Virus record (IMG/VR): IMGVR_UViG_3300045988_159199
Length of the DNA: 39,458 nucleotides
Direction: 5' to 3' (one strand)
Source of the DNA: a virus
Below are positions 200 to 39,458 of the stretch, piece by piece; position 1 is the first letter of the stretch, and every line of letters starts with the position of its first letter. Position numbers and translations under genes: made by a program. The notes beneath the pieces are model-generated. The model searched no databases. It saw only the letters and a program-made list of their open reading frames with translations, and was not told the origin of the DNA.

Positions 200-383
200 C
201 GGTTTTCTTTTTCCGAATCCCTCATGTGAGGAGTTCTTACGGCCAAGATATCAATAAAACGACGACCTGCAAAATCTGGTTTGATCGATGATACGCGAAA
301 TTCGGCCTTGCCCAGTCCACAGACCAGACAAGACCGAATTATTCACGGTACTTTGCAGCCAATCTATCGCCCGAAAATATAGC

Positions 384-692
384 TCACGCCGCGAGAGTGA
401 ACTTGGCTTTGAGTGCGCTGGCTCCGATGACGGCACCGGCGAGTACTCCGAGCGCATTGAGCGTGGTGACGATGGCATCGACGTACGGCAGTCCCCATGC
501 CGGGCCGACCGTGCCCATGAAGAGGGCAAGGGCCGGAAACACGAGTGCGGCAAGCCACTTCAAGATGTCATACAGTTTGTTGGGGATGAGCCATGCGGGG
601 ACCGCAGGGTTCACATCTGCCGCTGGGCTCCATGCAGACGTGTCGACTCCTATTGGGTTGGCGATGTTCTTGAGTTCGTTTTCATCGGACAT
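384..692 (-). CDS. Holin-like membrane protein (2 TM), last gene of the lysis cassette
   Basis: 102-aa ORF directly downstream of the endolysin. It has two hydrophobic helices (WLAALVFPALALFMGTV and VTTLNALGVLAGAVIGA) and C/G-ending codon usage. Confidence 0.75.
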   Translation of the reverse strand: MSDENELKNIANPIGVDTSAWSPAADVNPAVPAWLIPNKLYDILKWLAALVFPALALFMGTVGPAWGLPYVDAIVTTLNALGVLAGAVIGASALKAKFTLAA

Positions 693-746
693 TGTTATTC
701 CTTCTTTTACCGGGAGGGCCGCGATTGGATTCGCGGCCCTGTTGGA

Positions 747-2024
747 TCAGTAGTAGATGCGCGTTCCCGCGCGGACCTGGTTGGGATTGCTGATGCCGTT
801 GGCTGCGGCGACCTTGGCGCTGTTGGCGCCGAAATGGTTCCACAGGCAATCACCGGCACCGATCACCACGTAGCGCCCCGCACCGGCGGAGGTGGAGGAT
901 GTCGTACCGGTGAGCCGCAATCGCTGGCCGGGGTAGATGACGTAGGGGGCACGCAAACCATTGAGGTTTGCGATGCTTACCCAGTTCACGCCGGTTCCGG
1001 CACCGATCAAGGTCAGATAATCGCCTCGTTGCACGGTGTACCAGCTTGCGCTGGTACTTGTACCGCCTCCCGTGCCACGCAAACGCTGGTTGACGATTGC
1101 CATGACCTCGCTGTAGCGGTTGCCGAGCAGTTGACGGCGTTGCGGGTCGTTGCTGTAGTCGCCGCGAATCACTGCGGTTGCCAAGGACTGTGCGTCACCG
1201 ACCGGCGCACCTTGCTGGGGTGTCGGGCTGGGCGTGGCCGGGTTGGCGGAGGTGCCGGGCTGAGAACCCGCGTACTTCGCCCATGTTCCGGCATCGCCAT
1301 AGAACCAGTTGACGTCGATCCTGGAACCGACGCCAGGCACGTGACCCGAGCTGGAATACTGCCAGGCGGCGGCGAATGGCCAAGGGCTGACGTCGTAGGG
1401 CACGGCTCCGGGGTTGCGCAGGGTCTCTCCGGTATATCCACGCGGATATCCGGCAACCCACAAACCGTAGTTGGCGTTGGCCACTGCGGTCCAGTCGGTC
1501 ATTTTGATGACACTGGCAGACGTGTAGATGAGAGGCTTGACGCCCCATGCGGATTCGACACGCTGCAACCACCTGAGCGCCCACCAGCTCCATGTCACGT
1601 AGCTGCCCGATGGCTCCCAGTCCAATACTGGAATCACACCATCGTTGACATAGCCGCGCGTTTGGCCGATAAACCAGTCAGCCTCGGCCTCAGGGCTGTT
1701 GCCGAGATCAGGCCGAGCAAAATGGTAGACGCCGCGACGGATGCCGTTGGCCTTGAGCGACTGCATTGTGCAGTCGGCAACCGAATCAGTGTACCCGTTG
1801 CCCTCAGTGACTTTCACGAAAGCGAAGTTGACACCGGATGCCTTGGCGGTTGCGGCCTGACTGCTGCCGACACATCCTTGCCATTTGCTCACGTCCATAC
1901 CGCTGTCGGCGAGCGCGGTGCCCGGCACGAACACCAGGGCGATGGTCGTCAGCAGTGTGGCCAGCATGGTTGCCCATGGTCGGCGGGGACGGGCGTGGCG
2001 TGGCTTTCCGCGATTAAATATCAT
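747..2024 (-). CDS. Endolysin: signal-like N-terminus, GH25 muramidase, Cpl-7-like repeat and two LysM domains
   Basis: ATG at 2024 is preceded by AAAGGAG. Motifs seen: RRPWATMLATLLTTIALVFVPGTALA, DVSKWQG..FAFVKVTEG, VIRGDYSNDPQRRQLLG, WYTVQRGDYLTLIG and YVVIGAGDCLW. The upstream part of ORF 747-2354 is Arg/Pro-rich junk. Confidence 0.9.
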   Translation of the reverse strand: MIFNRGKPRHARPRRPWATMLATLLTTIALVFVPGTALADSGMDVSKWQGCVGSSQAATAKASGVNFAFVKVTEGNGYTDSVADCTMQSLKANGIRRGVYHFARPDLGNSPEAEADWFIGQTRGYVNDGVIPVLDWEPSGSYVTWSWWALRWLQRVESAWGVKPLIYTSASVIKMTDWTAVANANYGLWVAGYPRGYTGETLRNPGAVPYDVSPWPFAAAWQYSSSGHVPGVGSRIDVNWFYGDAGTWAKYAGSQPGTSANPATPSPTPQQGAPVGDAQSLATAVIRGDYSNDPQRRQLLGNRYSEVMAIVNQRLRGTGGGTSTSASWYTVQRGDYLTLIGAGTGVNWVSIANLNGLRAPYVIYPGQRLRLTGTTSSTSAGAGRYVVIGAGDCLWNHFGANSAKVAAANGISNPNQVRAGTRIYY

Positions 2025-2071
2025 GTGTTCTCCTTTCAGAGATGTTTTGGAGTCTCGCGGGATTGCGGGGC

Positions 2072-2383
2072 TCACGTTCTGTTGCGCGGCGCGATTGGCG
2101 CGGATTGGATGTCGTCGTTGAGGGATGTGCCGTGGCCGTTGCCGCCCAGCGAGTGATAGGAGTCGTAGAGGCGTTGGGAGCGTGATTTGAGGTCCTCGTC
2201 CGCCACTCCGTCGTGCTCGATGACCATTTCGCGTCGCAGGTCCTCTAACTGGCACAGCAGGAGCTCGCGCATCCCGTTGATGATCGCTCTGCCCCATCGC
2301 CGCATGAGGCCCAGCACGGTGACCGCGCCACCGCATAAGAAGGGCACCAGCCAATCAACGAGTTGTTCGATTAACTGCGACAT
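2072..2383 (-). CDS. Lysis-associated membrane protein (1 N-terminal TM; possible holin or holin partner)
   Basis: ATG at 2383 is preceded by AAAGGAG. The hydrophobic helix LVDWLVPFLCGGAVTVLGLM is followed by a charged tail. The gene sits directly upstream of the endolysin. Confidence 0.6.
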   Translation of the reverse strand: MSQLIEQLVDWLVPFLCGGAVTVLGLMRRWGRAIINGMRELLLCQLEDLRREMVIEHDGVADEDLKSRSQRLYDSYHSLGGNGHGTSLNDDIQSAPIAPRNRT

Positions 2384-2404
2384 GCGGGGCTCCTTTATGG
2401 TGAG

Positions 2405-2454
2405 AAAACCCACACGTGATACCGAGCGGATTGGCCGCGAGACGTGTGGTTTTT
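2405..2454. terminator. Hairpin (12 of 13 bp) with T-runs on both strands, between the lysis genes and the recombinase gene
   Basis: aaaacccacacgt (2405-2417) pairs with acgtgtggttttt (2442-2454). TTTTT follows on the plus strand just before the recombinase RBS, and TTTTC follows on the minus strand. Confidence 0.35.
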
Positions 2455-2465
2455 CGGAGGTCGAA

Positions 2466-3335
2466 ATGTTGTTGCAAGAGTTTTGGGATGACCGGTATGT
2501 CGGCTATTGCGAGCGCCTGCGCGAGGTCACGCGCGTTGGCTATGAGTCGGCTTGGCGATGCCATGTGGAGCCGGTGTTCGGCAGCATGGAGTTGGCTGAC
2601 ATCGGCGTGGATGACATCGAGCTGTGGCTGTCAGGGTTCGCGAGTCCAGGTGCGGCCCGCAAGGCTTGGGCGGTGTTGAGGCAGATGCTACGCAAGGCCG
2701 CGAAGTGGGGCTACTTAGAGGTCGATGTGACCCGTTTGGAGATTGATCTGCCGGCCAAGCCGCTCCATGTGCCGCGTCTGCTGACCATCGGGCAGACTCG
2801 TCGCCAACTACAGGGCTTTTATGGCCATGCGCTTGAGGCTTGGCTGATTGTGGACTCGTGTCTGGCGTTGCGGCCGGAAGAGGGGTACGGAGTCGATTGG
2901 GCGGATATCGATATGCGTTCCGGCATCACTCATATCCAGCGTGGAGTGCAATGGGTGGCCGGCCACGAAGTGGTGGTGCCGCCGAAGACTGAACTGTCCG
3001 ACCGGTTTCTGCCCCTTCCCCGATTCGCCGTCCGGCGATTGCGGGAGATCCGCAACGGCCGGAAGGGCCGTATCATCGGTGACCTGACCCCACCGCAAGC
3101 CGCGCGACGCTACGCCTCATGGTGCAAAAAGGAGTCGCTGCCCTACGTGCCGGTGCAGAATCTCCGCCACAGTTGGGCCACCAACGCCCTGGAAGCGGGA
3201 GTCAACATCGCGGTGGTCAGCAAGTTCCTTGGTCACACCGACATCAAGACGACCGCCAGATTCTATCTGCGACCGGAAATCGCGTCTCTCAAGGAGGCCC
3301 AAAGCATCTGGGAACGCGCGCTGATCGGGCAATAG
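2466..3335 (+). CDS. Tyrosine site-specific recombinase, predicted shufflon invertase (Rci-like role)
   Basis: GGAGG lies 5 nt upstream of ATG 2466. Tyrosine-recombinase boxes are present: ALRPEEG, NLRHSWATNAL and LGHTDIKTTARFY. It is transcribed opposite to the phage structural genes, and its stop abuts the first recombination site. Confidence 0.85.
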   Translation: MLLQEFWDDRYVGYCERLREVTRVGYESAWRCHVEPVFGSMELADIGVDDIELWLSGFASPGAARKAWAVLRQMLRKAAKWGYLEVDVTRLEIDLPAKPLHVPRLLTIGQTRRQLQGFYGHALEAWLIVDSCLALRPEEGYGVDWADIDMRSGITHIQRGVQWVAGHEVVVPPKTELSDRFLPLPRFAVRRLREIRNGRKGRIIGDLTPPQAARRYASWCKKESLPYVPVQNLRHSWATNALEAGVNIAVVSKFLGHTDIKTTARFYLRPEIASLKEAQSIWERALIGQ

Positions 3336-3337
3336 GA

Positions 3338-3348
3338 TTCCCTAACCC
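3338..3348 (+). repeat. Shufflon crossover site S1 (TTCCCTAACCC)
   Basis: Exact 11-mer, 2 nt after the recombinase stop. It reads TCC CTA ACC (S-L-T) in the cassette frame. Confidence 0.8.
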
Positions 3349-3665
3349 TGACGTCGAATCCGGTCGTGTCTCAGTTCTATCCCTCCACGCTTCCCGTGCG
3401 GGGCAACATGCGCGCCGGCATCGTGACCCTGCACATCTCCGGCTCCAACGTCGTCACTCACGCCACCAAGGATTCAGTGATCGCGAAACTCACGGCGGAC
3501 GCGCGACCGGCCGTACCGGTGCGCGTGCTGTTCGGTATGCAGGGCTCCTCATGGGGACTGTTCGTCGTCAACACCAATGGGGAAGTGACCGTCAGGCACC
3601 GATACGGCGGCAACTCCCTGTCATGGGATTTCGTGGACATCTCGACAACCTATGTGACCGCCTAG
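3339..3665 (+). other. Silent receptor-binding-protein C-terminal cassette 1 (promoterless, no start codon or RBS)
   Basis: The frame is open from the TCC of S1 to TAG 3663-3665 (SLTLTSNPVVSQFYPS...TTYVTA). The stop is followed by the next site. Confidence 0.75.
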
Positions 3666-3670
3666 TGGTT

Positions 3671-3681
3671 TTCCCTAACCC
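3671..3681 (+). repeat. Shufflon crossover site S2 (TTCCCTAACCC)
   Basis: Exact 11-mer. The flanks GGTTT..CCCAGC match the site inside the expressed gene most closely. Confidence 0.8.
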
Positions 3682-3995
3682 AGCGTTCCACGACATGGCG
3701 AGTACCGTACAGCAGCAACAGCGTTTTGCTTACGCGCATCGGTGATATCTGTTTCATGGGCGGCAACGTGAAATTCAACAATAGCGGGCAGAACAATTAC
3801 ACGACGGCTCAGGAGAAGATCCCCGAAGGGTATCGACCCGTCAGCGTCAATACGCCCGTGGCCGTTTTCGGTGGTGAAACGACATTCATCTGTTACGGCG
3901 AGGCCAATGGCACCGTCACGATGCTCGGCAACCCGAACAGCGCGTATGCGGGATGCACCGGCGTATGGCGCACCACCGACCCCATGCCCGCGTAG
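3672..3995 (+). other. Silent RBP C-terminal cassette 2
   Basis: The frame is open from the TCC of S2 to TAG 3993-3995 (SLTQRSTTWRV...IPEGYRP...GVWRTTDPMPA). Confidence 0.75.
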
Positions 3996-3997
3996 TT

Positions 3998-4008
3998 TTC
4001 CCTAACCC
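3998..4008 (+). repeat. Shufflon crossover site S3 (TTCCCTAACCC)
   Basis: Exact 11-mer, 2 nt after the cassette 2 stop. Confidence 0.8.
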
Positions 4009-4322
4009 CTGTCACGGGCCGGGTCAAGATGCCGTATTCCGATAGGTATATCACTCTGGTTCGCGTCGGCCGTATCGTCACCGCCTGCGCGTATATCACG
4101 CTGACAAGTAATTTCAATCAGGTCGGCAACGTGTCCGTCAACGAGACAATTCCGGAGGGTTTCAGACCGTCCGGCGATTCCCGCGCGGTCATGCGCGGCA
4201 CCGACAACAGCGGCGCGACCAGTTTCTACCTTTACGGCACCGCAGACGGGAAAATGGTGTTGAACGGCACCGGATATACCAGCCGATTCGTCGGTATATC
4301 CGGCTGTTGGATTACCGAGTAG
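3999..4322 (+). other. Silent RBP C-terminal cassette 3
   Basis: The frame is open from the TCC of S3 to TAG 4320-4322 (SLTPVTGRVKM...IPEGFRP...GCWITE). It is a paralogue of cassette 2. Confidence 0.75.
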
Positions 4323-4324
4323 CA

Positions 4325-4335
4325 TTCCCTAACCC
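4325..4335 (+). repeat. Shufflon crossover site S4 (TTCCCTAACCC)
   Basis: Exact 11-mer, 2 nt after the cassette 3 stop. Confidence 0.8.
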
Positions 4336-4700
4336 AAACCCAGCGCATCCGGTTCGACCGTTCCGGCACCACGAGCGCCAATGACGAGATGCACCTGTCG
4401 GGCGCGATACTGCCGGTCAGTCCGGCTATCGCGGTCATCAGCATCGTATGGGTCAACAAGGGCGCGTTCAAGGCACAATCGTGGAAAGCCACCACACTGG
4501 CTCGTATGGTCGGCTGGAAGGTGATTGGATCCGCCGTACATTCCCCGGCTGCGGAGAACATTGTCTACGAGCATCTAGGCAAGAACCAGTTCGCCGCGAC
4601 CGGCTCAGGGGAAATCCAATACATCACGCCGGGAACCATAGACATCTTCGCGAATGCGTGGCATCGCGGCTGTCTGATAGCTCCGGTCACGCCCTCATAA
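4326..4700 (+). other. Silent RBP C-terminal cassette 4
   Basis: The frame is open from the TCC of S4 to TAA 4698-4700 (SLTQTQRIRFDRSG...LIAPVTPS). At 375 nt it is the same length as the currently expressed C-terminal segment. Confidence 0.75.
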
Positions 4701-4703
4701 GGT

Positions 4704-4714
4704 TTCCCTAACCC
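4704..4714 (+). repeat. Shufflon crossover site S5 (TTCCCTAACCC)
   Basis: Exact 11-mer, 3 nt after the cassette 4 stop. Confidence 0.8.
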
Positions 4715-5001
4715 CGGCGGAGTACGCGCCGTATATCCAGTGCGCCGGGCATACGGTAACGACCGGTGATGACGGCACGTTCTGGGTGGGCGTCAAGTCT
4801 CCGAACGGCAAGCCTCCGGACTATGCCTCGTACACGGTCGGCCCTTTCGGCACCGGGTTCAATGACGAGGACGGCATCATCGCCCACCTATGGGACGTGA
4901 CCGCCACCGGAGTCCGGTTCCGCCTCTACACGACGCGCTATCAGCGGTGGTGCGGCAAGACCGCGATCTTCGGCAAATGGATCGCCGTATGGCGCCGCTA
5001 G
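4705..5001 (+). other. Silent RBP C-terminal cassette 5
   Basis: The frame is open from the TCC of S5 to TAG 4999-5001 (SLTPAEYAPYIQ...KWIAVWRR). Its stop overlaps the stop of the expressed gene in the palindrome CTAG at 4998-5001. Confidence 0.75.
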
Positions 5002-5999
5002 CTGAACGTGACACCGTCGGGGATTGGCAAGGTGCGAGGCGTGTGCATGCACCGGTCTCCGTTGGACAAGCCGCCGACGACCATGATGGTGCCGTTCGCG
5101 TTCCAAGTCGCTTGTTTCGCCCAATTGCCGACTGGCAAAGCCCACAGGCAGCCGAGAGACACCGCCTTGGACGGTTTCACTCCCGACGCGTATTGGAACA
5201 CCGGGTAATCGTGGCTCAGGTTCACCGTGCTCTTGAACCCGCTCAAGTCCGCGTGGAGCAGTCGATTACGCTCGTCCACGACGATCTGCATGCCGCCGCC
5301 GTAGGCGTCAGGCTGGAATGATTTCGTGTCCTGCCACTTGAATTTCGCGTACAGGAGCGGCTGGGTTAGGGAAACCCAGACGCCTGATTTTGCCTGGTAT
5401 TCGTTGCCGTCGAGTAGTCGGCATTTTTGCCCTTCCCATGGCGTCCATGCGTCTTTTTCGGTTTCGCTGCGGAAGAGCAGATCGGCACCGGCTGAGGCAG
5501 TGAAGGGGTACATCTGTTCGTAGATGACTCCGGTGGAGGTCATGGAGGTCGCCGTCGATGGGATGGTGACTCGGGCGAGGGCCAGTGCTCCTTCTGGTGT
5601 TGCTGGCGTAACGGGATCCACTGCTGGGGTGCCGGTGACGATGATGGCTTCTGGGCCGTCTGTGGGGTCGCTGGCTGGTGAGGCGGTTTCGTTTTGTTTG
5701 ATGCAGATGAGGTCGATGCGACTGTTGGCGCTGGGGGCGGCGGCGTGTTTGACGCTGATGGTGCCGTCGTTACTGAGCCAGACTGGGCCATATCGGTTGG
5801 TGACGGCATCGAAGGCGGCGATGTCGCTGTTCATGCCGTTCCCTGCCGTGACGAGTCCGGTGAGGCTTTTGGCGGTGATGCTGACGCCGGTTTTGATGTT
5901 GCCGTTGGCGTCCTGGGCGGTGGTGGCGCGGAGTGCAGCGCGGATGTCGAATTGGTCTGCCGCGTCGCTGACTGCGGGAAATCCGTTACGGAGCGTCAT
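4998..5999 (-). CDS. Receptor-binding / distal tail fibre protein with exchangeable C-terminus (expressed shufflon gene)
   Basis: ATG 5999 overlaps the upstream stop (ATGA). It is the last tail gene. It contains the inverted crossover site in frame (VSLTQ). The remainder of ORF 4998-6374 is a shadow frame. Confidence 0.85.
   Translation of the reverse strand: MTLRNGFPAVSDAADQFDIRAALRATTAQDANGNIKTGVSITAKSLTGLVTAGNGMNSDIAAFDAVTNRYGPVWLSNDGTISVKHAAAPSANSRIDLICIKQNETASPASDPTDGPEAIIVTGTPAVDPVTPATPEGALALARVTIPSTATSMTSTGVIYEQMYPFTASAGADLLFRSETEKDAWTPWEGQKCRLLDGNEYQAKSGVWVSLTQPLLYAKFKWQDTKSFQPDAYGGGMQIVVDERNRLLHADLSGFKSTVNLSHDYPVFQYASGVKPSKAVSLGCLWALPVGNWAKQATWNANGTIMVVGGLSNGDRCMHTPRTLPIPDGVTFS
5363..5373 (-). 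repeat. Shufflon crossover site S0, inverted relative to S1-S5, inside the expressed RBP gene
   Basis: gggttagggaa is the reverse complement of TTCCCTAACCC. TCC at 5372-5370 is in frame with ATG 5999, the same S-L-T reading as all five cassettes. Confidence 0.8.
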
Positions 6000-6676
6000 T
6001 GTTGGTTCCTTTTCTCTAGTTGTGTGAGGCGTTGTGCCAAATCGTCGATTCGGGTTTCCGCATCCTGGGCGAGGCGGAGGGCGGCGACGCTGAGTGTCTG
6101 GTAGTCGATGCCGTCTGGTTCGTCGTTTGCGTCGTAGGTGCAGAACATGCCGAGGCCGTTGGAGTCGAGGTCTTCGGCGATCATGCCGATTCGTGGCATG
6201 GCGCTGTCGTTGTTGGCGTTGAGATCCGCGATGTAGCGGAAGATCTGCCATTTGACTTTGCGCAGGGCCTCGATGGGGATGAATTGGTCTGCATCGGTGA
6301 TATCGGTCTTGACTTTGCGGCTTGATTGCGCGGTGCCGATGGTGCCGTCCGTGAGGATCCATCCGGCTCTCCATTGGCCTTTGGTGAAGAGATTGTTGTA
6401 GCCGTTTGTTGTGCCGGTGCCGCCTCGGCCTGGCGTGAGTGTGCCCCAGTTCCAGTCTTGGAGCTTGCTGTCGATGGTGGCTTTGTCATAGCTGTTTTTG
6501 CTGATGCTGTCGGCCACTTGCTGGTCGAGGCTGTCGAACAGTGCGAGGATCTTTTTCACGGTTTGGGTGAATTGTCCGTCCGTGGGTACTCGCAGGTTGC
6601 GGATTGACGCTTCGATGCGGTTGATGCGGTCGGCGAATTTGGCGAAATCATCGGTGTAGGTTTTTGGATCACTCAT
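5996..6676 (-). CDS. Tail fibre protein with a C-terminal intramolecular-chaperone (peptidase S74-like) domain
   Basis: An N-terminal coiled segment is followed by TAQSSRKVKTDITD..IPIEALRKV..IGMIAEDL, resembling the self-cleaving chaperone domain of phage fibres. It ends in a coiled coil. Confidence 0.7.
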   Translation of the reverse strand: MSDPKTYTDDFAKFADRINRIEASIRNLRVPTDGQFTQTVKKILALFDSLDQQVADSISKNSYDKATIDSKLQDWNWGTLTPGRGGTGTTNGYNNLFTKGQWRAGWILTDGTIGTAQSSRKVKTDITDADQFIPIEALRKVKWQIFRYIADLNANNDSAMPRIGMIAEDLDSNGLGMFCTYDANDEPDGIDYQTLSVAALRLAQDAETRIDDLAQRLTQLEKRNQQ

Positions 6677-7784
6677 TGAAGGCTCCTGTGGTGATTTCGA
6701 TTTTGTCGCTGTCGCTTGAGCCGCGAAGGGTCATGATGCGGAGCTTGTGCAGGCCGTCCGGTATGCCGAACTGGTCGTTTCGGATGATGAGCCCGCAGTC
6801 GTGGCCGACGTCGTATTCGCCGAGCCGCTGGTCTCGTTGGACGCTGAATTGCCATGTGTTGAGGGGGCGTGTGCTGGTGCGGATGGTTTCGACGGCGTGT
6901 GCGAGCGCGGTTTTGGGGTCGGTGACGCTGCTGGACAGGCTTTCGACCTTTTCCAGTAGGGGGAATCCGAGGCCAGTGAAGCTGTGGTCTGTTGCGCGTT
7001 CGATGATTGCTTGGTCGCTGGCTGCTCCGCCTGTTTCCCAGACGATGTTGGCGAGGTCGTTGGCGTCTTGGCTGATTGTGAGGTCGCTGACGGTGTTGCC
7101 TGGCAGGCTGGTGTCCCAGATGGTGGTGGTGTTGCCGGTGAGTCGGGGCTTGCCGGTTTTGAGGAGCCATTCGTAGCCGAGGCCGTCTGTGGTGAGGCGG
7201 GGTTGGAATCGGATGTCGGGCCCGTTTTGGACTTCGGTGAGGTTAATGAGCAGGTCGCCTATGAGTTTGAGCTCTGCTCCTTTGATGTTGCGTTCGTAGG
7301 TGCCGGCCATGTCGTCTTCGAAGGTGATGGGCAGGTTGCCGCCGGTCCAGGTGAGTGATTGTTGGATCCATCGTTTGGCGATGGTCTGGTAGCTGGTGTT
7401 TTTGATGTTGGTGTCGAATCCGGTGTTGGCGGTGCCGTCGCTGTTGGTGAGCTTGTCCGTGTCTTTCATCAGTGGCAGGAGGGTGCGGTGGTCGAAGTAC
7501 GACCAGAGGCCTTTGCCTGAGAGTTCGACGGTGCCGGCGTCGCGGTCGTAATGGCGGGTCCAGATGGGGCCGCCGTTGGTGACTCCTTGGTCTTCGATGA
7601 TGAGCGCGGTGCGACCGGGTATGGAGGCGTTGTAGAGGTCGAGTTTTTGGATTCGTCGGTCGTTGACGCTGACGGTGGCGGTGACGGTTTCGGCTCCGTT
7701 GAATTCGCCGGTCCAGTCGGCTTTGAGGTAGGGCAGGTCGAGGATGCGTCGGCCGGTGCGTAGGTCGCATATTCTGACTCTCAT
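6669..7784 (-). CDS. Tail-associated / baseplate hub protein (Tal-like)
   Basis: 371-aa ORF directly after Dit in the canonical TMP-Dit-Tal order, with good C/G-ending codon usage. Other frames are Arg/His junk. Confidence 0.75.
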   Translation of the reverse strand: MRVRICDLRTGRRILDLPYLKADWTGEFNGAETVTATVSVNDRRIQKLDLYNASIPGRTALIIEDQGVTNGGPIWTRHYDRDAGTVELSGKGLWSYFDHRTLLPLMKDTDKLTNSDGTANTGFDTNIKNTSYQTIAKRWIQQSLTWTGGNLPITFEDDMAGTYERNIKGAELKLIGDLLINLTEVQNGPDIRFQPRLTTDGLGYEWLLKTGKPRLTGNTTTIWDTSLPGNTVSDLTISQDANDLANIVWETGGAASDQAIIERATDHSFTGLGFPLLEKVESLSSSVTDPKTALAHAVETIRTSTRPLNTWQFSVQRDQRLGEYDVGHDCGLIIRNDQFGIPDGLHKLRIMTLRGSSDSDKIEITTGAFNE

Positions 7785-7800: not shown

Positions 7801-8676
7801 TTACCACCATGCGGGGCTTGCGGTCATGGTGAGTGTCGGTGTTCCGGTGACGGTGCCGAGTGGGGTGAATTGGACGGTGCAGGTTTCGCCTGGCGGGCAT
7901 TGGAACCAGTCGTACTCCGTGAGGAATCCGCTCAGGCTTGACTGGTTGTTGAGCAGCACGGTGCCGTAATACGTTTCGAGGGTGACCGTATCGTCCATGT
8001 TGATGGGCCGGCTGATGGTGATGGTTTGGCCGGTTTCGACTCGTTTGAGGGAGAATCCTTGGCTCATGCCGCCTGTCACGACGAGCGTAAGGTAGGTGGT
8101 GGCGGTGCCCGTGTTGGTGAACCTGACTCGTCCGTCGGTTCCGGGGGTGCCGAAGTTGACGGGGAATGTCAGGGGAAATCGCAGGCCTCCGCCGTGCGCC
8201 GCCATGCCTGTGCTGTTGGTGGATTCGGCGCCGTAGGCGCGTGGGTCTATGGCGGTCATGTCGATTGTGATGTCGGAGAGCCGGCTTCGTCCTCGATGCG
8301 ATGGCACCGTGATCTCGATGTTGGTCATGTCTCGGTGGGTTTCGCCGGCAGCGCCCCTGAAGGTGGCCCTTAGGGGCGCTGCCGGTTCTGCGGTCAGGCC
8401 GTTGAGCGCGTATATCGCCTGTTCGAGCTCCGCGACGGTGCTGCCCACGTAGGCGACAGTCGCGGTGATGAGCGCCGATTGGCGCGTGGTCTGGCCGGGG
8501 TCGAACGCGCCGTGCTGCAGGGCGCGTTCATTGACATCGTTTTTGGCGTCGCTCAGACTCATCCAATCGGTGAGGTTCTGCAGGCCCCAGCCGTGCCGTG
8601 CGCCGACGATGCCGGCACCGCCGTCGAACCGGATGGCCGACTGTCCGGTGCCGAGCGTCAGATCGTATGCGCTCAT
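7801..8676 (-). CDS. Distal tail protein (Dit-like)
   Basis: ATG 8676 overlaps the TMP stop (TGATG). Its position immediately after the tape measure gene supports the call. Confidence 0.75.
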   Translation of the reverse strand: MSAYDLTLGTGQSAIRFDGGAGIVGARHGWGLQNLTDWMSLSDAKNDVNERALQHGAFDPGQTTRQSALITATVAYVGSTVAELEQAIYALNGLTAEPAAPLRATFRGAAGETHRDMTNIEITVPSHRGRSRLSDITIDMTAIDPRAYGAESTNSTGMAAHGGGLRFPLTFPVNFGTPGTDGRVRFTNTGTATTYLTLVVTGGMSQGFSLKRVETGQTITISRPINMDDTVTLETYYGTVLLNNQSSLSGFLTEYDWFQCPPGETCTVQFTPLGTVTGTPTLTMTASPAWW

Positions 8677-11600
8677 CAGACTCCTCCTGTTCCCGCGAAC
8701 GCCTTGCCTGCGTAACGGCCCCATGCGAGCGCCTGCTTGCGGGGATCGTCCTGGACGGTGGTGATGTTCTGCGTGATATTGGTTACATTGGTTCGTTGGT
8801 CTCCGCCGTATCCGGCAGTGGCGGTGTCGGTACGTCCGATGGTGGACCGGTAGGCGAGTTCGACGCCGTTGGCGGCGGATTGTGCGCGTTGCATGGCGTC
8901 ATGCACCGCTTTTTCGGCTTTGCCGGCGTTGTCGGTGACGCCTTGGGCGAATGCGGCGGTGATGCTGCGGCCTGAGTAGAGCACCCATCCTCTGCCCGAG
9001 AACGGGCCCTCCTTGGCTGGCGAGAACGGGAACAGGTCTCGGATGGACTGCAGCGCACCGCTGACGGCATCCTTGGCTCCCGATATCGCGCCTTTGATGC
9101 CGGAGATCAGGCCGTCGATGATGGCTTTGCCTGATTGGACCAGCCATTGGCCGGCACCGGACAGCGCGTTGAGCACGGTGTCCCTGATGCCGCCGACGAT
9201 TGAGCCGAGTCCCTTGACCGCGCTGCTGACGATCTGCTTGAACCCGTTCCAGACTTGGCCCCAGTTACCGGAGATGATGCCGGAGACGACGTTCACGATG
9301 CCGGAGATGATGCCGGAGATTGTGCTGAACACGGCCTTGACGGTGCCAACCGCCGAGGTGACGGCCGGTGCCATTGCGCTGAATGCGGGCAGCAGCAGCG
9401 AGTTGATGGCCCATGCCACGAGGTTCGCGACGCTTTGCACGATGGAGCCGAGTTGCTGGATGATGGGCATCACCGCACCGGCGATTTGGGCGACGATTTG
9501 CCCGATCGGTGCGATGATTTCGGCCAGGGCGGCCACGATCTGCATGATGATCGGTATGAGCGCCTGTATCACCGCGTTCAGTGGCGGAAGCAGGGTGGTG
9601 ATCATGCTGAGAATCGGTTGGATCAGCGCGTTGACCACATCCAGCAGCGGCGGCAGCACCGTGGACACGAGGTTGACGATGATCGATGCCACTTGCCCGA
9701 TGACGTTCATCACGGTCGTGATGACCGGCATGAGAGCTTGGATGATGGATGCCAGCGGGGGCAGCAGGCTCGTTATCAGCGTGGTGATGGGCGGGATCAG
9801 CGACTGGATGAGATTCAGCACTGGCGGCAGCACCGTGGACACGAGGTTGACGATGACCGTCACGACCTGGCCTATGGCTTCGCCAATCACCGTGATGACC
9901 GGTGCCATTGCGGAGATGATGGACGACACGGCCGGCAGCAGGTTGGCGATCAGTGTGGTGATGGGCGGCAACAGGGACTGAATCGCGCCCAATACCACAT
10001 TGACGATGTTGGTGATGACCGGCATCAGCGACGAGAACACCTGCATCAGCGGTGTGATGATCTGCGGCACCAGTGGGACCAGCAGGGCCATCACCTCGCT
10101 GATTGCGGACGCTATCGCGGTCAGTGTCTGGCCGATGGCCGGCGCCATCTGGCCGAATCCGGTCAGCAGTGGTTCGACGATTTGCGGGATGACACCTATC
10201 AGTTGCTGGAAGATCGCGCCGACCGAGTTGATGACGGATTCCAACGACCCGATGAGTGAAGGGCCGACATCCTTGAACGCCAAGCTCAGGGTCTTCTTGA
10301 ACGTCTCGAATGCTGGCCCCATGCCGGAGAGCGTGTTCTTCAGATTCTGGAAGAGCGCGGAGAGCTGTGCTCCGAAAGCGGACTTGAGTCGCGGGGTGGT
10401 GGCGATGAGACCGCCGAGGGCGGCCACGGCCACTCCCACGGGTCCACCGATCAGTCCCAGGGAATTTGCCAGACCGCCGAATGCCTCGCCCAGGATCGGG
10501 ATCTTGGTCAGGAGCGGTCCGACACCTCCCAGGCCAAGGGCTCCGAAGGCGGCGGCGACCGGAGCGATGACGCCGCTCATGCCGGAGAGTTTGCCGGTGA
10601 TTCCTCCGGCCCCTTCTCCGAGCTTGGTGAGCCAGCCTGTGACTCGGTCTATGGCGGGGCCGAGCACGTCGCCTATGGCGGAGCCTAGGCCCTTGGCCAT
10701 GTCTTCCATGGGTCCGAGCGCCTTGGTGGCCGCTTGGATGAGAGGGCCGAGCTTGCCGAACACGCCATCGAGCAGGTTCGCGCCGATACGGCCGATGCTG
10801 GCCTTGAGGTTGGCGAACGCGCCTGGCACTGTGGTGCCCATTTCGGTGGCCACGGTGCCCGCTGCGGACGCTGCGGCATCGCTGAAGGTCTGGAAGTCGA
10901 TTTTGCCTTTCGACGCCATCTCGCGCACTTCGTCGGTGGTGACGCCGAGCTTGTCGGCGAGCGCCTGCCAGATTGGCAGTCCTCGATCGGAGAGCTGGTT
11001 GATGTTGTCGGTGTAGGCTTTGCCGGTGGCGGCGACTTTGTTGAAGACCGAGCCGGTTTCTTCCATGGTTCCGCCGGTGGCGGCGGCTACGTTGGCGACG
11101 CCTTTGAGCATCGTTTCGAGTTGTTCGCCGGGTTTGATGCCTGCGGCCACGGCCGATGCGGCGACTGTCGCCGCCTCGCCGAGTCCGAAGCTGGTGCCTT
11201 TGACGCTGGCGGTCGCGTTGGCCATGATAGCGTCGACGCTTTTCGCGTCGTTGCCGAGGCCTCGGAGTTTGGCCGAGGCGGTGTCTATGGCGTTGAGTCG
11301 GCTGAATCCTGCTGTGAGCGCGGTGCCGATGCCGGCGATGCCGACTGTGACGGCTCCGGTGGCGATGCCTTTGACTGCGTTGCCGACGCCTTTGAGCGCG
11401 TTGCCGACCGCTCCCATGGCGCTTGATGCTTTGCTGGCGATGCCTTGGAAGGCTGTGAGGAATGCGTTGCCTACGCCTTTGGCGGCTCCTTGGGCGATGG
11501 GCGCGAGTTTGCCGAACACGGCTTTGGCGGCGGAGCCGATGCCGCCGAGATAATTGCCGACGCTGCTGAATCCTTTGACCACGGTGGATGCGGCGTTGCG

Positions 11601-12500
11601 GAATGGTGCGGGGATTTTCGCCGCGAGGTCGGATACCGTGGCCTTGACGCTGTTGAATCGTTGGCCGAGGCCGTAGGCGATGTCGCTGCCGAACTGTTTG
11701 ACGACCGCGCCTGCGGTTTTGAATGGGGCGGTTATCTTGCCGATGCCATCTGCGACTGTTCGGGCGGCTCCGCCGACTTTGCCGAGCCATCCCGCGCCGT
11801 CGAGCATGGCCATGTTGGCGTTGGTCCAGCCGGCGCGGAATTTGTTGATCGCGTTGACGGCCGGACCGGCGATGGCTCCTGCGAGGGAGCCGAGCGCGGT
11901 GGACAGTGATGCGGTGGAGGCCTTGCCGGCGTCGATGTCCGAGAATCCGGCTTTGAATTTGGCGAAGATGCTCTTGTTGCTTTCGGCGAGCGCTTTCGCT
12001 TGTGTTTCGGCGGATTTTTGTGCTGTAGTGAGTGCTTCTTGGGCTGATTTGAGGTTGCCTGTTGCGGCGGTGAGTTCGATGTCGGCGAGTTTGACTCGTT
12101 CTCGTGCGGCGGCGAGGCGTTGTTCCGCCGCTGCGGCTTGTGTGCTGTCGGCTCCGTATTTTTTGACTGCGGCGTTGTAGGTGTTTTCGGCCTGGATCGC
12201 GGACGCGGTGGCGGTCTGTTGTTTGATTCGGGCTTTGGAGACCGCCGCCGCTGCGCTGGCCACGTCCTTGGAGAGTTGTTTCATTTCGTCGCCGCCGACG
12301 TTTTTCATGGCGTCTTTGGCGGTGGTGCCGAATTCCTTGCCGAGCTGTTTGCCGGCTTTGCTGCCCATGCCTTTGAGGGAGTCCGTGAATTTCTTGGCTC
12401 CTTGGCTGCCTGAGCCCGACATTTCCTGGCTGACGGATTTTTTGAATCCAGTCATGACCGGGAACACGCGGACGGCGCCGGTTCCGACGATTCTCGCCAT
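8676..12500 (-). CDS. Tape measure protein (1274 aa)
   Basis: ATG 12500 is preceded by GGAGAGGGAG. The protein is long, Ala/Gly-rich and helical, with internal tandem repeats and hydrophobic stretches. It follows the G/GT chaperone genes. The 79 codons upstream in ORF 8676-12737 are Arg/His junk. Confidence 0.9.
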   Translation of the reverse strand: MARIVGTGAVRVFPVMTGFKKSVSQEMSGSGSQGAKKFTDSLKGMGSKAGKQLGKEFGTTAKDAMKNVGGDEMKQLSKDVASAAAAVSKARIKQQTATASAIQAENTYNAAVKKYGADSTQAAAAEQRLAAARERVKLADIELTAATGNLKSAQEALTTAQKSAETQAKALAESNKSIFAKFKAGFSDIDAGKASTASLSTALGSLAGAIAGPAVNAINKFRAGWTNANMAMLDGAGWLGKVGGAARTVADGIGKITAPFKTAGAVVKQFGSDIAYGLGQRFNSVKATVSDLAAKIPAPFRNAASTVVKGFSSVGNYLGGIGSAAKAVFGKLAPIAQGAAKGVGNAFLTAFQGIASKASSAMGAVGNALKGVGNAVKGIATGAVTVGIAGIGTALTAGFSRLNAIDTASAKLRGLGNDAKSVDAIMANATASVKGTSFGLGEAATVAASAVAAGIKPGEQLETMLKGVANVAAATGGTMEETGSVFNKVAATGKAYTDNINQLSDRGLPIWQALADKLGVTTDEVREMASKGKIDFQTFSDAAASAAGTVATEMGTTVPGAFANLKASIGRIGANLLDGVFGKLGPLIQAATKALGPMEDMAKGLGSAIGDVLGPAIDRVTGWLTKLGEGAGGITGKLSGMSGVIAPVAAAFGALGLGGVGPLLTKIPILGEAFGGLANSLGLIGGPVGVAVAALGGLIATTPRLKSAFGAQLSALFQNLKNTLSGMGPAFETFKKTLSLAFKDVGPSLIGSLESVINSVGAIFQQLIGVIPQIVEPLLTGFGQMAPAIGQTLTAIASAISEVMALLVPLVPQIITPLMQVFSSLMPVITNIVNVVLGAIQSLLPPITTLIANLLPAVSSIISAMAPVITVIGEAIGQVVTVIVNLVSTVLPPVLNLIQSLIPPITTLITSLLPPLASIIQALMPVITTVMNVIGQVASIIVNLVSTVLPPLLDVVNALIQPILSMITTLLPPLNAVIQALIPIIMQIVAALAEIIAPIGQIVAQIAGAVMPIIQQLGSIVQSVANLVAWAINSLLLPAFSAMAPAVTSAVGTVKAVFSTISGIISGIVNVVSGIISGNWGQVWNGFKQIVSSAVKGLGSIVGGIRDTVLNALSGAGQWLVQSGKAIIDGLISGIKGAISGAKDAVSGALQSIRDLFPFSPAKEGPFSGRGWVLYSGRSITAAFAQGVTDNAGKAEKAVHDAMQRAQSAANGVELAYRSTIGRTDTATAGYGGDQRTNVTNITQNITTVQDDPRKQALAWGRYAGKAFAGTGGV

Positions 12501-12514
12501 GGTGACTCCCTCTC

Positions 12515-13272
12515 CTATGTTGTTTCGACGTTGGTGATGATGATTTCCTCGTCCAGCTCGGCGAGCGCCTTGTCGATTTCCTCTGGTGTGGCTTTCGCGG
12601 CGTCGATTTGTTTTTGGCGTCGTGCCATGGTCCATGGCATGATTTTTTCGGCCGCTTTGCCGTCGCCGATGGTTGCGGCGAGCTGGAGGAGGTCGATGAG
12701 GCGTGCGGGGTATGACCATTGGGCGATTTCCGCGCATAGGGGGTTGCTGGGGTCGTCCAGGAGTTGGTAGACGAGGTCCCAGGCTTCGCCGTAGGTGATG
12801 GTTTTGCCGATTTGGTTGGCGCTGATGCCGTACCGTTCGCGGAGGGTTGCCGCGAACGGTTGGCGGTGCTCGTGGTGGAGCCGGACGAGGGCGATTATTT
12901 TTCCAGTACGAGCTGGTTGAGTTTTTGGAAGATTTCGAAGTATTTGTTGGCCATGTCGATCATCGAGGGGGTTGGCTGTGCGAGGAATTTCTCGGCGTCT
13001 TCCTTTCCTGCGATTTTTTCGATGAGGCGGGTGAACTGGTCGACGCTGGCGACGTCGCCTTCGCTGATTTCGTTGACGTCTTCGAGGCTGATGCTCAGTG
13101 GCAGGTTGATGATGGTGCCGTCGGGGAAACGGCCGTAGAAGTGGTTGTCGCCGATGGCGTACTTGCATTTCGAGGCTTGGGCGATCTGCTTGAGCGCGGC
13201 TTCTTCCTGTTCGGGCGTCCAGCTGTCGAAGTCGATTTCGGGGATGCTGGTGGTTTCGGTCTTGGATGTCAT
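12515..13272 (-). CDS. Tail assembly chaperone GT fusion made by a -1 programmed frameshift
   Basis: The -1 frame is open from the slippery G GAA AAA (12898-12904) to 12515 (..TGKIIALVRLHH..). ORF 12515-13168 has no credible start of its own. Confidence 0.6.
12895..13272 (-). CDS. Tail assembly chaperone (gpG-like)
   Basis: 125-aa acidic protein between the major tail and tape measure genes. It ends ..CTG GAA AAA TAA, with a slippery run at the stop. Confidence 0.8.
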   Translation of the reverse strand: MTSKTETTSIPEIDFDSWTPEQEEAALKQIAQASKCKYAIGDNHFYGRFPDGTIINLPLSISLEDVNEISEGDVASVDQFTRLIEKIAGKEDAEKFLAQPTPSMIDMANKYFEIFQKLNQLVLEK

Positions 13273-37797: not shown

Positions 37798-38021
37798 GCA
37801 CCGCAAGATATCTCAGCCTCAAGGAGGTCGGCGAGCGCATCGGCACGAGCAATCCGGCCGCGAGGGGGTATCATCTGCCGGAACCGGACGCACTGATCGG
37901 CACGACTCGCGGCTGGCTTCCGGAGACAATCGATGCGTGGAACGCCGCCCGCCCCGGTCGTGGTGCGGGCGGCGGAAGGCCGCGCAAGAATCGCAATCAG
38001 GCCGATTCTCCCACCGCCTGA
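37794..38021 (+). CDS. Xis/AlpA-like small HTH DNA-binding protein (candidate excisionase)
   Basis: GGGAGG lies upstream of ATG 37794. Sequence: YLSLKEVGERIGTSNPAARGY..TRGWLPETIDAW, followed by a basic tail. Its 3' end overlaps the integrase 3' end by 25 nt (convergent). Confidence 0.6.
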   Translation: MSTARYLSLKEVGERIGTSNPAARGYHLPEPDALIGTTRGWLPETIDAWNAARPGRGAGGGRPRKNRNQADSPTA

Positions 38022-39238
38022 CGAGCCTTGTCGGCGAGCGCCGCAAGGCTTGCGGCGGACCAGTGGGTGTATCCGGCCGTCGTGCTGATTTTGGCGTGGC
38101 CCATCATCGCTTTTCTCGCGTCTTCCGGGGCTCCGGCTTCGGCGAGGTGCGTGGAGAAGAAGTGGCGGGCGCTGCGGATGGTGACGCAGGGCAATCCGGC
38201 GTCTTCGAGAGAGCGTTTCCAGCGGCGGCGTTCCACGGTGTTGGTGAGCGGGTGTCCCTCGCGCGTGAATATGAGCTGGCCGGGCTGGCATTGCCTGCGT
38301 CCGACGAGCGCCCAGAGTCCGAGCCACGTCTGGTTGCTGACGGGCACGAACCGGTTGCCCTGCTTGCTTTTCGGTTCGACGAGCCAGAAGCATCCCTCGT
38401 AATGGCGGGAGCGGAGCCAGTTGGGCACTTCTGCATCGGATCTGAAGCGTTGGAGCTCCCACATGATCTGGATTCCGTGCACGCCGTCGACGGTGGCGAG
38501 CTCTTCGGGCAGGATGGCGAATCTTTCGGCCTCTCTCATGCCGGTCTCGAACATGATGTTCCACATGAGGCTCCACATTTCGCGGTCGTCGTCGGTATCT
38601 GCCAGGTGGCTGTATTTGCGACGCTTGGGGTCGAGTGCGGCCTGCGCCGCCCGGGCCGGCTGTCCGGGTTCGAGGATTTGGGTGGCCTGCGACTCGTAGC
38701 GCGGCGGCGTTGCGGCGAGCGCCGGGTTCGATGGGATGAGGCGTTCGCGGACCGCTGCGTCGAGCACCTGCCTGAGTCTGAGATAGTGGTTGTGGACGGT
38801 TTTGCTTCGGTGTTCCTTGGCGAGTTTGGCGCACATTCCGTCGATGGTGGCGGGGGTTATTCTGTCGAGTCGCATTCCGCCGATGACGCTGCGGATGGTG
38901 TTGCAGTCGGATCGATAGGTTTCGAGGGTGCGGGGTTTGACATTGGGCGCGATGGTATTGAGCCATCGCTCCATCCATTCGTCGAGCGTTGGGGTTCCGG
39001 CCAGGGGCATATCGCCCTCGCGCTGCAGTCTTTTGATTTTTTCTTGGAGCCGCTGCCGCGCGGCGGTCTTGGTGGGAGCCTGCGCCTCGACCATGCGGCG
39101 TTTGCCGGTGCGCGGGTTTGGTGCGATTTCTTTGCGCGCGTGCCAGGTTCCTCGTTGATCCTGCCATTCGCTGCCGCTTCCCCGCGGCCTGCGTGGAGGT
39201 GTTTTGGACGTCGTTGTTTGGTTCTGTGCGGGCATCAT
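37997..39238 (-). CDS. int: Tyrosine integrase
   Basis: RSARHFFSTHLAEAG and MMGHAKISTTAGYTHW catalytic boxes are present, with an N-terminal SAM-like core-binding region. The gene is adjacent to att/tRNA. Confidence 0.9.
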   Translation of the reverse strand: MMPAQNQTTTSKTPPRRPRGSGSEWQDQRGTWHARKEIAPNPRTGKRRMVEAQAPTKTAARQRLQEKIKRLQREGDMPLAGTPTLDEWMERWLNTIAPNVKPRTLETYRSDCNTIRSVIGGMRLDRITPATIDGMCAKLAKEHRSKTVHNHYLRLRQVLDAAVRERLIPSNPALAATPPRYESQATQILEPGQPARAAQAALDPKRRKYSHLADTDDDREMWSLMWNIMFETGMREAERFAILPEELATVDGVHGIQIMWELQRFRSDAEVPNWLRSRHYEGCFWLVEPKSKQGNRFVPVSNQTWLGLWALVGRRQCQPGQLIFTREGHPLTNTVERRRWKRSLEDAGLPCVTIRSARHFFSTHLAEAGAPEDARKAMMGHAKISTTAGYTHWSAASLAALADKARQAVGESA

Positions 39239-39295: not shown

Positions 39296-39365
39296 CGAGG
39301 TCACAATCAGGCACGTTTGGCCCAAATCTTGCAATCACGATGATTCGGCACCCGAATATGCGAAA

Positions 39366-39401
39366 GGCCGCAAACCCTTGGAATTGCTTGGGTTTGCGGC
39401 C
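39366..39401 (-). terminator. Rho-independent terminator downstream of tRNA-Gly (12-bp stem)
   Basis: ggccgcaaaccc / gggtttgcggcc with a 12-nt loop, followed by TTTCGC on the minus strand. An identical copy lies at 27-62. Confidence 0.65.
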
Positions 39402-39409
39402 TTTGTCAG

Positions 39410-39458
39410 TGGAGCGGATGACGGGAATCGAACCCGCGTAATCAGTTTGGAAGACTGA
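39410..39458 (-). tRNA. tRNA-Gly (anticodon UCC), 3' part only; the 5' half lies beyond the window end
   Basis: The reverse complement reads TCAGT CTTCCAA ACTGA TTAC GCGGG TTCGATT CCCGT CATCCGC T CCA. These are the anticodon arm with UCC, the T arm, the acceptor strand, discriminator U and CCA. Confidence 0.7.

Follow-up and report, generated by a model that had tools for sequence, protein, structure and literature searches.

A Rin-type shufflon that probably switches the receptor-binding heads of a temperate Bifidobacterium longum siphovirus

Introduction

The closest described relatives of the locus studied here are the Rin shufflons of the dnaJ2-integrated Bifidobacterium prophages Bb423phi1, Bl157phi1 and Bl30698phi1 (Mavrich et al. 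2018, Sci Rep 8:12772, PMC6109161). Their published parts are a tyrosine invertase (rin), a constant part (Rc), variable cassettes (Rv) and an 11-bp crossover repeat, rix, with the sequence TTCCCTAACCC; inversions were documented by comparing prophages and by reads from virions and lysogens (PMC6109161). Rin shufflons have also been reported in clade 1 prophages of Eggerthella lenta (PMC8778435). In this report, we analyze a 39,458-nucleotide stretch of viral DNA, the IMG/VR record IMGVR_UViG_3300045988_159199, hereafter "the window", which is the genome of a temperate siphovirus of Bifidobacterium longum. We conclude, with a probability of about 0.9, that positions 2466-5999 form a Rin-type multiple-inversion shufflon that swaps the head cassettes of the phage's receptor-binding protein (RBP). 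As the mechanism has already been published, this finding is confirmatory, and its value lies in its scale and detail.

The window carries this known shufflon, in a phage lineage that is sister to the published one. Its locus shares with those described an identical rix, an armless tyrosine recombinase that flanks the array, an Rc with an internal, inverted rix, multiple Rv cassettes that lack a start codon and have heads like that of TP901-1, the location of the array between the tail and lysis genes, and isomers that break at rix (PMC6109161). The window's six cassettes span 98-124 codons, whereas the published five have 95-100 residues; its Rc has about 209-212 amino acids, compared to 168, and is of a different sequence type; and its integration site is a tRNA-Gly(UCC) gene rather than dnaJ2 (PMC6109161). 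The published Rc was noted to resemble the N-terminal part of the RBP of lactococcal phage 1358 (PMC6109161). As a stand-in for the dnaJ2 type, we used L064, a B. longum isolate prophage with a DnaJ/HrcA flank and a 294-residue RBP whose short Rc ends in ...VWDSLT. The Rin proteins of the window and of L064 are 63% identical over their full length and the rin genes about 70% identical, but Rc and the remaining backbone cannot be aligned. A preliminary description of this DNA, made from its letters alone, had pointed to recombinase-linked shufflons in bifidobacterial prophages; they are real and of the same kind, down to the 11-mer. It had also called the position of the cassette block, between tail and lysis genes, unusual. 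The placement is as it described, but this is the standard layout of Rin loci.

Crossover sites, cassettes and the receptor-binding protein

Six copies of rix are present in the window, five on the plus strand and one on the minus strand, compared to 0.23 copies expected from shuffled sequences; none of 100 shuffles attained six. The plus-strand sites are S1 (3338-3348), S2 (3671-3681), S3 (3998-4008), S4 (4325-4335) and S5 (4704-4714). The minus-strand site, S0, lies inside the RBP gene and is a full site at 5359-5381, GTCTGGGT / TTCCCTA / ACCCAGCC, with its 11-mer at 5363-5373. When the six are aligned with 30-bp flanks, the 11-mer and one G three bases upstream of it are invariant, and nothing else is. 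All six share one reading frame, TCC-CTA-ACC, which encodes S-L-T; the RBP gene (4998-5999, minus strand) reads ...SGVW-V-S-L-T-QPLL... across S0.

The RBP gene thus divides at S0 into Rc (5373-5999, minus strand), which encodes residues 1-209, with the V-S-L-T ending at residue 212, and the currently expressed variable C-terminus, Rv0 (4998-5372, minus strand; 124 codons from S-L-T). On the plus strand, each rix opens a silent cassette: Rv1 (3339-3665), with 108 codons from S-L-T and a stop; Rv2 (3672-3995), with 107 codons and of the IPEGYRP class; Rv3 (3999-4322), also with 107 codons and with a head domain of the TP901-1/p2 RBP type; Rv4 (4326-4700), with 124 codons; and Rv5 (4705-5001), with 98 codons, which is one half of a two-ended segment. 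The first in-frame start codons of Rv1-Rv5 occur only at codons 10, 19, 11, 22 and 28, respectively, and no Shine-Dalgarno-like motif precedes these internal starts in any of the five. A motif of the AAGGA or GGAGG type does precede the RBP gene, the two genes upstream of it, and the genes for the portal, the capsid and Rin. In the case of the RBP gene, AAGGA lies 7 nucleotides before an ATG that overlaps the stop codon of the upstream gene as ATGA.

Most of what the preliminary description had said of this array holds: the six 11-mers, five of them opposed to the one inside the gene; the frames of 98-124 codons that each plus-strand copy opens in the TCC-CTA-ACC register; the lack of a start codon or ribosome-binding site in the cassettes; the paralogy of cassettes 2 and 3 (Rv2 and Rv3 are 32% identical and both contain IPEG[YF]RP); and the tyrosine recombinase gene whose stop abuts S1. 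Its statement that every copy lies 2-3 nucleotides after the previous stop codon is correct for S1, S3, S4 and S5, but not for S2, the distances for S1-S5 being 2, 5, 2, 2 and 3 nucleotides.

The division of the RBP is also evident in database comparisons. The match of the protein to phrog_3398 is confined to residues 16-210, and the exact full-length protein of the window (Rc-Rv0) is annotated in B. longum. Thirteen cassette families were found, one of which is a frameshifted copy, and they fall into few sequence classes. An AlphaFold2 model of Rv3 (predicted local distance difference test score, pLDDT, 91.2; predicted template-modeling score, pTM, 0.80) is an eight-stranded beta domain. Its top Foldseek matches are the RBP heads of the phages TP901-1 (2f0c, 4v96, 3hg0, 4ios) and p2 (2bse, 1zru), with template-modeling (TM) scores of 0.66-0.75 and a probability of 1.0; among predicted viral structures (BFVD), RBPs of lactococcal phages rank first. 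This match independently reproduces a published HHpred statement naming the TP901-1 RBP head, and the Rv heads in general are presumed to be receptor-binding domains like those of TP901-1 and p2.

Some database proteins are chimeric inside a cassette. Two (P0347 and P0329) join an Rv3 head to an Rv5 tail, and two others (P0338 and P0353) join an Rv3 head to an Rv2 tail. These may be products of real homologous recombination or chimeric assemblies.

The recombinase

The gene rin (2466-3335, plus strand) encodes an armless, XerC/XerD-like tyrosine recombinase of 289 residues that is presumed to be the invertase. GGAGGT lies 4 nucleotides before its ATG, and its TAG stop is 2 nucleotides ahead of S1. 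Just two domains make up the protein, a SAM-like one for core binding and a catalytic one (Pfam Phage_int_SAM_3 and Phage_integrase), and its closest relatives of solved structure are the XerC-like 4a8e and the XerD 1a0p. An alignment of 18 Rin homologs shows no variation at Arg136, Lys174, Arg234, His257 and Tyr267, and the "His II" position is occupied by Q, R or K. All matches in Pfam, PHROG and NCBIfam are of the tyrosine recombinase type, not of the serine invertase type. Those in NCBIfam are generic Xer-like matches, none of which comes anywhere near a curated cut-off, and the name "XerC" and others like it in databases are therefore unsupported.

Rin homologs of 50-64% identity are found in about twenty Bifidobacterium species, and homologs of 35% identity in metagenome-assembled genomes (MAGs) of Eggerthellaceae. 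In 21 of the 22 Bifidobacterium homolog loci, a rix-like site lies no more than about 20 bp past the rin stop codon. Two database Rin proteins, P0008 and P0017, are mosaics, in which the N-terminal third resembles the 63% lineage and the remainder is identical to the window's Rin; either real homologous recombination or chimeric assembly could account for them.

Isomers and fusion proteins

Evidence for inversion comes from the window's close relatives, whose cassettes, those of B. longum isolate genomes included, are mostly 93-100% identical to its own. We compared 21 IMG/VR contigs whose Rin is 99-100% identical to that of the window, together with ten further contigs that carry the exact RBP, by mapping the window's segments onto them and translating every rix-initiated frame. 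The cassettes recur in these loci at 96-100% DNA identity in other orders and orientations, and the joints are always at rix. If E denotes the Rv5/Rv0 pair and a prime denotes inversion, the window and L059 have the arrangement (1,2,3,4,E), L053 has (4,2,3,1,E), L055 has (2,1,4,3,E), L060 has (4,2,1,3,E), L010 has (1,2,4,E,3'), L013 has (2,3,4,1,E') and L014 has (4,E,1',2',3'). Loci that hold the six-cassette set thus display at least seven arrangements.

Protein databases contain the expected products. Thirteen protein clusters match the RBP through ...SGVWVSLT, most of them with 100% identity over the constant part, and are unrelated to it thereafter; proteins identical through ...VSLT end in more than ten unrelated C-termini. 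All six of the window's cassettes, or their families, occur fused to Rc in public data. Rv1 is joined to an identical Rc in the protein P0249 and in the isolate locus L074, Rv2-family C-termini are joined to Rc in P0233 and L077, and Rv4 is joined to an identical Rc in P0235. Rv3 occupies the expressed position beside Rc in L010 and L014, as does Rv5 in L009; Rv5 also adjoins the last inverted rix in L013 and L073.

Isolate genomes tell the same story. In the complete genome CP062964.1, the locus is present twice (L074 at 2.42 Mb and L075 at 0.01 Mb), with 34 kb between the copies, which lie on either side of the origin and share their host flank; one of them carries frameshifts. Their arrangements, (3,E',2',4',1') and (1,4,2,E,3'), differ by exactly one inversion of the whole block. 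Most likely, the overlapping ends of the circular assembly were left untrimmed and each captured a different isomer. Between the genomes GCA_028311865.1 and GCA_028313745.1, the terminal two-ended segment is flipped. The preliminary description had proposed that inversion between the gene-internal site and any cassette site would exchange the distal part of the RBP in frame, yielding six versions, and had suggested looking for isomers in related prophages. Such isomers do exist, with their breakpoints at rix, and together with the fusion proteins they support an in-frame swap of the distal 100-125 residues or so.

Mechanism and alternative explanations

The likely course of events is as follows. 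Rin would pair two inverted rix sites and exchange strands within their asymmetric center, TTCCCTA, so that the DNA between the sites is inverted. The cassette that lands beside Rc would become the expressed C-terminus of the RBP, with the rix-encoded S-L-T as the joint of Rc and Rv, and the cassettes left in the array, lacking both promoter and start codon, would be silent. Given that the heads appear to be of the TP901-1/p2 type, switching should alter which surface receptor of B. longum is recognized.

A quite different account would treat the arrangements as artefacts of assembly or as the outcome of general homologous recombination between paralogous cassettes, with the 11-mer being nothing more than a conserved coding motif for S-L-T. 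Many of the loci are indeed metagenome contigs, the proteins P0347, P0329, P0338 and P0353 are joined inside cassettes, and the number of cassettes ranges from 2 to 6 among near-identical phages. Against this, every breakpoint falls exactly at rix, and 11 bases are too few for RecA-type recombination and fewer than an assembler's k-mers. Nor does a coding motif explain why the DNA of rix is conserved directly after the rin stop codon, where it is non-coding, why the copies within a locus are identical, or why species differ at central positions where synonymy is irrelevant. Further, isolate genomes differ by clean single inversions, and published reads show inversion at rix (PMC6109161). We consider this account highly improbable. 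Even less probable, in our estimation, is the notion that each cassette is a small gene in its own right, coding perhaps for an accessory baseplate protein, and that the recombinase serves dimer resolution or integration. Automatic gene callers do predict hypothetical proteins of 71-103 residues from internal starts in the cassettes; yet those starts lack a Shine-Dalgarno motif, none occurs before codons 10-28, and the frames are open from rix. Moreover, every cassette is fused in frame to Rc somewhere, and the phage has an integrase of its own.

The shufflon of this phage could also be a frozen relic that expresses Rc-Rv0 only. The window is in what might be called the "ground" arrangement, with its five silent cassettes in one orientation, as is L059, and some relatives look locked: phage PMBT6, discussed below, has three direct sites and a degenerate one, TTCCGTAATCA, beside rin. 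On the other hand, the window's six sites are perfect, its rin is intact with all of the catalytic residues, and genomes that encode an identical Rin protein show many arrangements. A relic is very unlikely, if slightly less so than the two preceding accounts.

Several considerations weigh against the interpretation of the locus as an active, host-range-switching shufflon. Many of the isomers are metagenome assemblies, in which false paths through invertible regions are possible; whole arrangements and cassette counts (2-6) from such assemblies are less reliable than single junctions, which must exist in reads because rix is shorter than any assembler k-mer. For this particular genome, inversion is inferred from its relatives. 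The role of Rin as the catalyst is presumed. The model that was obtained is of one cassette, Rv3; a model of the full-length RBP (AlphaFold2, 17-row alignment) had a pLDDT of 36 and was discarded. A profile of RBP relatives gave no match at E <= 10 to the sequences of the Protein Data Bank (PDB), and Rc has no relative of solved structure that is detectable by sequence. Finally, the change in host range would follow from the modeled fold of the heads, and a permissive host for such phages is not known (PMC6109161).

Anatomy of the sites

A set of 113 distinct rix sites clarifies the architecture of the crossover region. Copies inside Rc have a conserved 5' flank, GT[G/C]TGGG[A/T], and are composed of an 8-bp arm, a 7-bp asymmetric center (TTCCCTA) and a second 8-bp arm. 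The arms are complementary at up to 8 of 8 positions; the window's S0 has 7 of 8. Cassette copies retain the center and, of the right arm, no more than its first four bases; their mean arm complementarity is 3.4 of 8. On the left they are flanked by little else than the preceding stop codon, and this flank is degenerate compared to the left arm, GTGTGGGA.

Across some 20 Bifidobacterium species and an Eggerthellaceae MAG (loci L023-L046), the 11-mer occurs as TTCGCTAACCC, TTCCGTAACCC, TTCCCTATCCC, TTCCCTGACCC and TTCACTAACCC, which vary at central positions only; yet each locus keeps to a single version in all of its 2-7 copies. Two sites joined by a tyrosine recombinase must agree in the stretch where strands are exchanged. 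The pattern in rix is as expected for such a stretch, and TTCCCTA is therefore the putative site of strand exchange. How an armless tyrosine recombinase favors inversion over deletion was left open by Mavrich et al. (PMC6109161); the anatomy described here, with a two-armed site only in Rc and a center that is uniform per locus, provides substrates with which to approach that question.

One relative, an isolated phage, departs from the usual design. Bifidobacterium phage PMBT6 (MK932884.1, positions 5330-6360; L063) encodes a Rin homolog of 49% identity that is annotated as "integrase". It has three TTCCGTAACCC sites in a single orientation, in addition to the degenerate site beside rin, and may be a locked shufflon.

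Grammar of the arrangements

Every single cassette bears rix at its 5' end only. It follows that exactly one tail-to-tail pair without an intervening rix must exist, and that recombination at rix cannot separate its members. In the window's phage this fixed pair is Rv5/Rv0, and in every locus with both members the two travel together; a variant with a different cassette set has as its fixed pair an Rv2-like cassette and a cassette designated X3. The nature of the pair explains the CTAG at 4998-5001, where the overlapping stop codons of Rv5 (plus strand) and of the RBP gene with Rv0 (minus strand) converge. The preliminary description had correctly noted this overlap but deemed it unusual; rather, it marks a segment that the site grammar requires.

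In every locus examined, forward cassettes are found between rin and the pair, and inverted ones between the pair and Rc. Enumeration yields 240 arrangements and six proteins, with every state reachable through inversions, and the observed six-cassette isomers are 0-6 inversions away from the state of the window. We also considered whether the isomers could reveal if the Rc site is an obligatory partner or if any inverted pair may recombine. Both rules reach the 240 states in similar numbers of steps, and the isomers do not discriminate between them. The minimal form of the system, reminiscent of the Mu G switch, is found in several species, in which the locus has just two inverted sites 0.6-1 kb apart.

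Relation to other inversion systems

The logic of the locus resembles that of the R64 (IncI1) Rci/sfx/PilV shufflon, in which one tyrosine recombinase likewise performs multiple inversions at asymmetric sites and thereby swaps C-terminal recognition domains in frame. R64 also has segments that bear two convergent C-termini. Its sfx sites have a 7-bp spacer, and only one of their arms is conserved. The rix sites are similar in having a 7-bp center and a conserved right arm, with a left arm that is conserved only at the Rc site. Unlike the window's locus, the R64 shufflon acts on the pilus of a conjugative plasmid, not on a phage tail, and the site sequences differ. Among the best 25 of 412 records in a tblastn search of Rin against 72,556 plasmids, the matches were generic "site-specific integrases" of no more than 29% identity, and none was evidently of the Rci type.

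The Gin (Mu), Cin (P1) and Min (p15B) systems share with the window's locus a phage-encoded inversion that swaps the C-terminal, host-recognizing part of a protein, and Min, too, is a multiple-inversion system. Their enzymes, however, are serine invertases, and they act on tail fibers of the myovirus type, as opposed to the head of a siphovirus baseplate RBP. The preliminary description had likened the locus to both R64 and Gin/Cin and had suggested a search for Rci-type kinship. The likeness is one of logic: Rin is a tyrosine recombinase of a generically Xer-like kind, with no family tie to Rci evident among the matches listed, and is not a serine invertase.

The E. lenta shufflon is organized like that of the window, with small Rv genes in tandem and a larger gene, Rc, lying after that of a tyrosine recombinase, but the host belongs to another class, the recombinase is distant, and the Rv genes are described as H-type lectin domains (PMC8778435). 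Near the Eggerthellaceae MAG homolog mentioned above, TTCCCTATCCC lies 70 bp past the recombinase gene.

Exchange of cassettes between phage lineages

Blocks of L064 that contain Rv0/Rv5, Rv1 and Rv3 (8502-9839) are 99.4-99.7% identical in DNA to the window's 3333-5381, and the identity is bounded by rix. L065, a third type of B. longum prophage located beside murC/ftsQ, has Rv0, Rv3 and Rv5 at 98-99% protein identity (8877-10203), and its Rin is 90% identical to that of L064. In the fragment P0298, the short Rc is fused to Rv3. Because cassettes this similar are found in phages whose rin genes are only about 70% identical and whose Rc and backbones cannot be aligned, cassette exchange must be far more recent than the divergence of the lineages. 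The sequences thus indicate recent exchange, which may have been effected either by Rin or by homologous recombination. No account of cassette exchange between lineages was encountered in the portions of Mavrich et al. consulted (PMC6109161).

These facts raise the possibility that rix-bounded RBP-head cassettes constitute a shared mobile pool. Besides shuffling cassettes within one phage, Rin could catalyze their exchange between co-resident phages in the manner of an integron or of recombinase-mediated cassette exchange (RMCE), with the species-specific rix center acting as a barrier to compatibility. The tRNA-Gly, dnaJ2 and murC/ftsQ types would draw on this pool although their Rin alleles differ (63% identity) and their Rc scaffolds are unrelated; exchange among them is conceivable because all use the same rix, which encodes a universal S-L-T joint. 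We advance this idea tentatively and with rather more doubt than confidence. If it is true, the rix center (TTCGCTA or TTCCGTA versus TTCCCTA) would define exchange groups. A shared pool would further suggest that host-range modules circulate between phages, which bears on the search for permissive hosts and on the engineering of bifidophage host range.

The phage, its host and its distribution

The remainder of the window conforms to a temperate siphovirus. The gene just upstream of that for the RBP (5996-6676, minus strand) encodes a 226-residue protein with an S74 chaperone domain (Peptidase_S74, the intramolecular chaperone of endosialidase). Beyond it, on the same strand, lie genes for a minor tail protein (6669-7784), Dit (7801-8724) and the tape measure protein (8676-12737, with a true start that is probably later). 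On the other side of the shufflon, the minus strand encodes a Dp-1 holin (384-692), a GH25/CW_7/LysM endolysin (747-2024, by the gene call of public contigs) and a 103-residue protein of unknown function that matches phrog_4105 (2072-2383). A lambda-type integrase of 413 residues, separate from Rin, is encoded at 37997-39238 (minus strand). Also in the window are genes for the portal, the capsid, a ParB-like protein and a regulator with helix-turn-helix (HTH) and M78 (ImmA/IrrE-like) domains.

Bases 1-119 of the window are exactly repeated at 39340-39458, giving a unit of 39,339 bp, and they contain the 3' part of a tRNA. This terminal repeat is either the overlap of a circular assembly or a pair of attachment (att) repeats. 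In chromosomes of B. longum, the complete genome CP150432.1 among them, integrated copies adjoin tRNA-Gly(tcc); this site is not among the three integration sites of Mavrich et al. (PMC6109161), and the dnaJ2 att core, TTCTTCAGCAAGTTGAAGGACGCACTGAGCTGAGA, is absent from the window at up to 3 mismatches. Two other hosts, B. adolescentis (from one MAG name) and Collinsella (from a 1.1-kb MAG contig), were considered and are outweighed by many isolate and complete genomes of B. longum.

In the human gut, this prophage is among the common ones of B. longum. In a public assembly collection, the exact Rin was present in 7,393 blocks and the integrase in 2,937. By contrast, a megablast search of the region against 50,697 deposited phages gave no match, because prophages of such a type are not deposited as phages. 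The switch fragments assemblies, and its genes are misannotated as "XerC", "integrase" or "hypothetical protein". In 5,725 of the 7,393 blocks with the exact Rin, the longest contig is under 5 kb, the assemblies breaking at the shufflon, and several contigs of isolate genomes (L030, L036 and L038-L041) stop within about 130 bp after rin.

The lysis and tail genes are on one strand, and 2.5 kb of cassettes and the opposed rin lie between them (2400-5000). A scan of positions 300-6300 for promoters and terminators found no promoter-like site and some weak terminator-like matches, none of them on the minus strand within the shufflon; late transcripts may therefore run antisense through rin. A hairpin at 2405-2454, between the lysis module and the start of rin, is flanked by A and T tracts and has an 8-bp core stem, CCACACGT/ACGTGTGG. 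Its folding energy is -22.7 kcal/mol on the plus strand (z -1.9) and -21.0 kcal/mol on the minus strand (z -2.9), and it may serve either to terminate transcription in both directions or to regulate rin.

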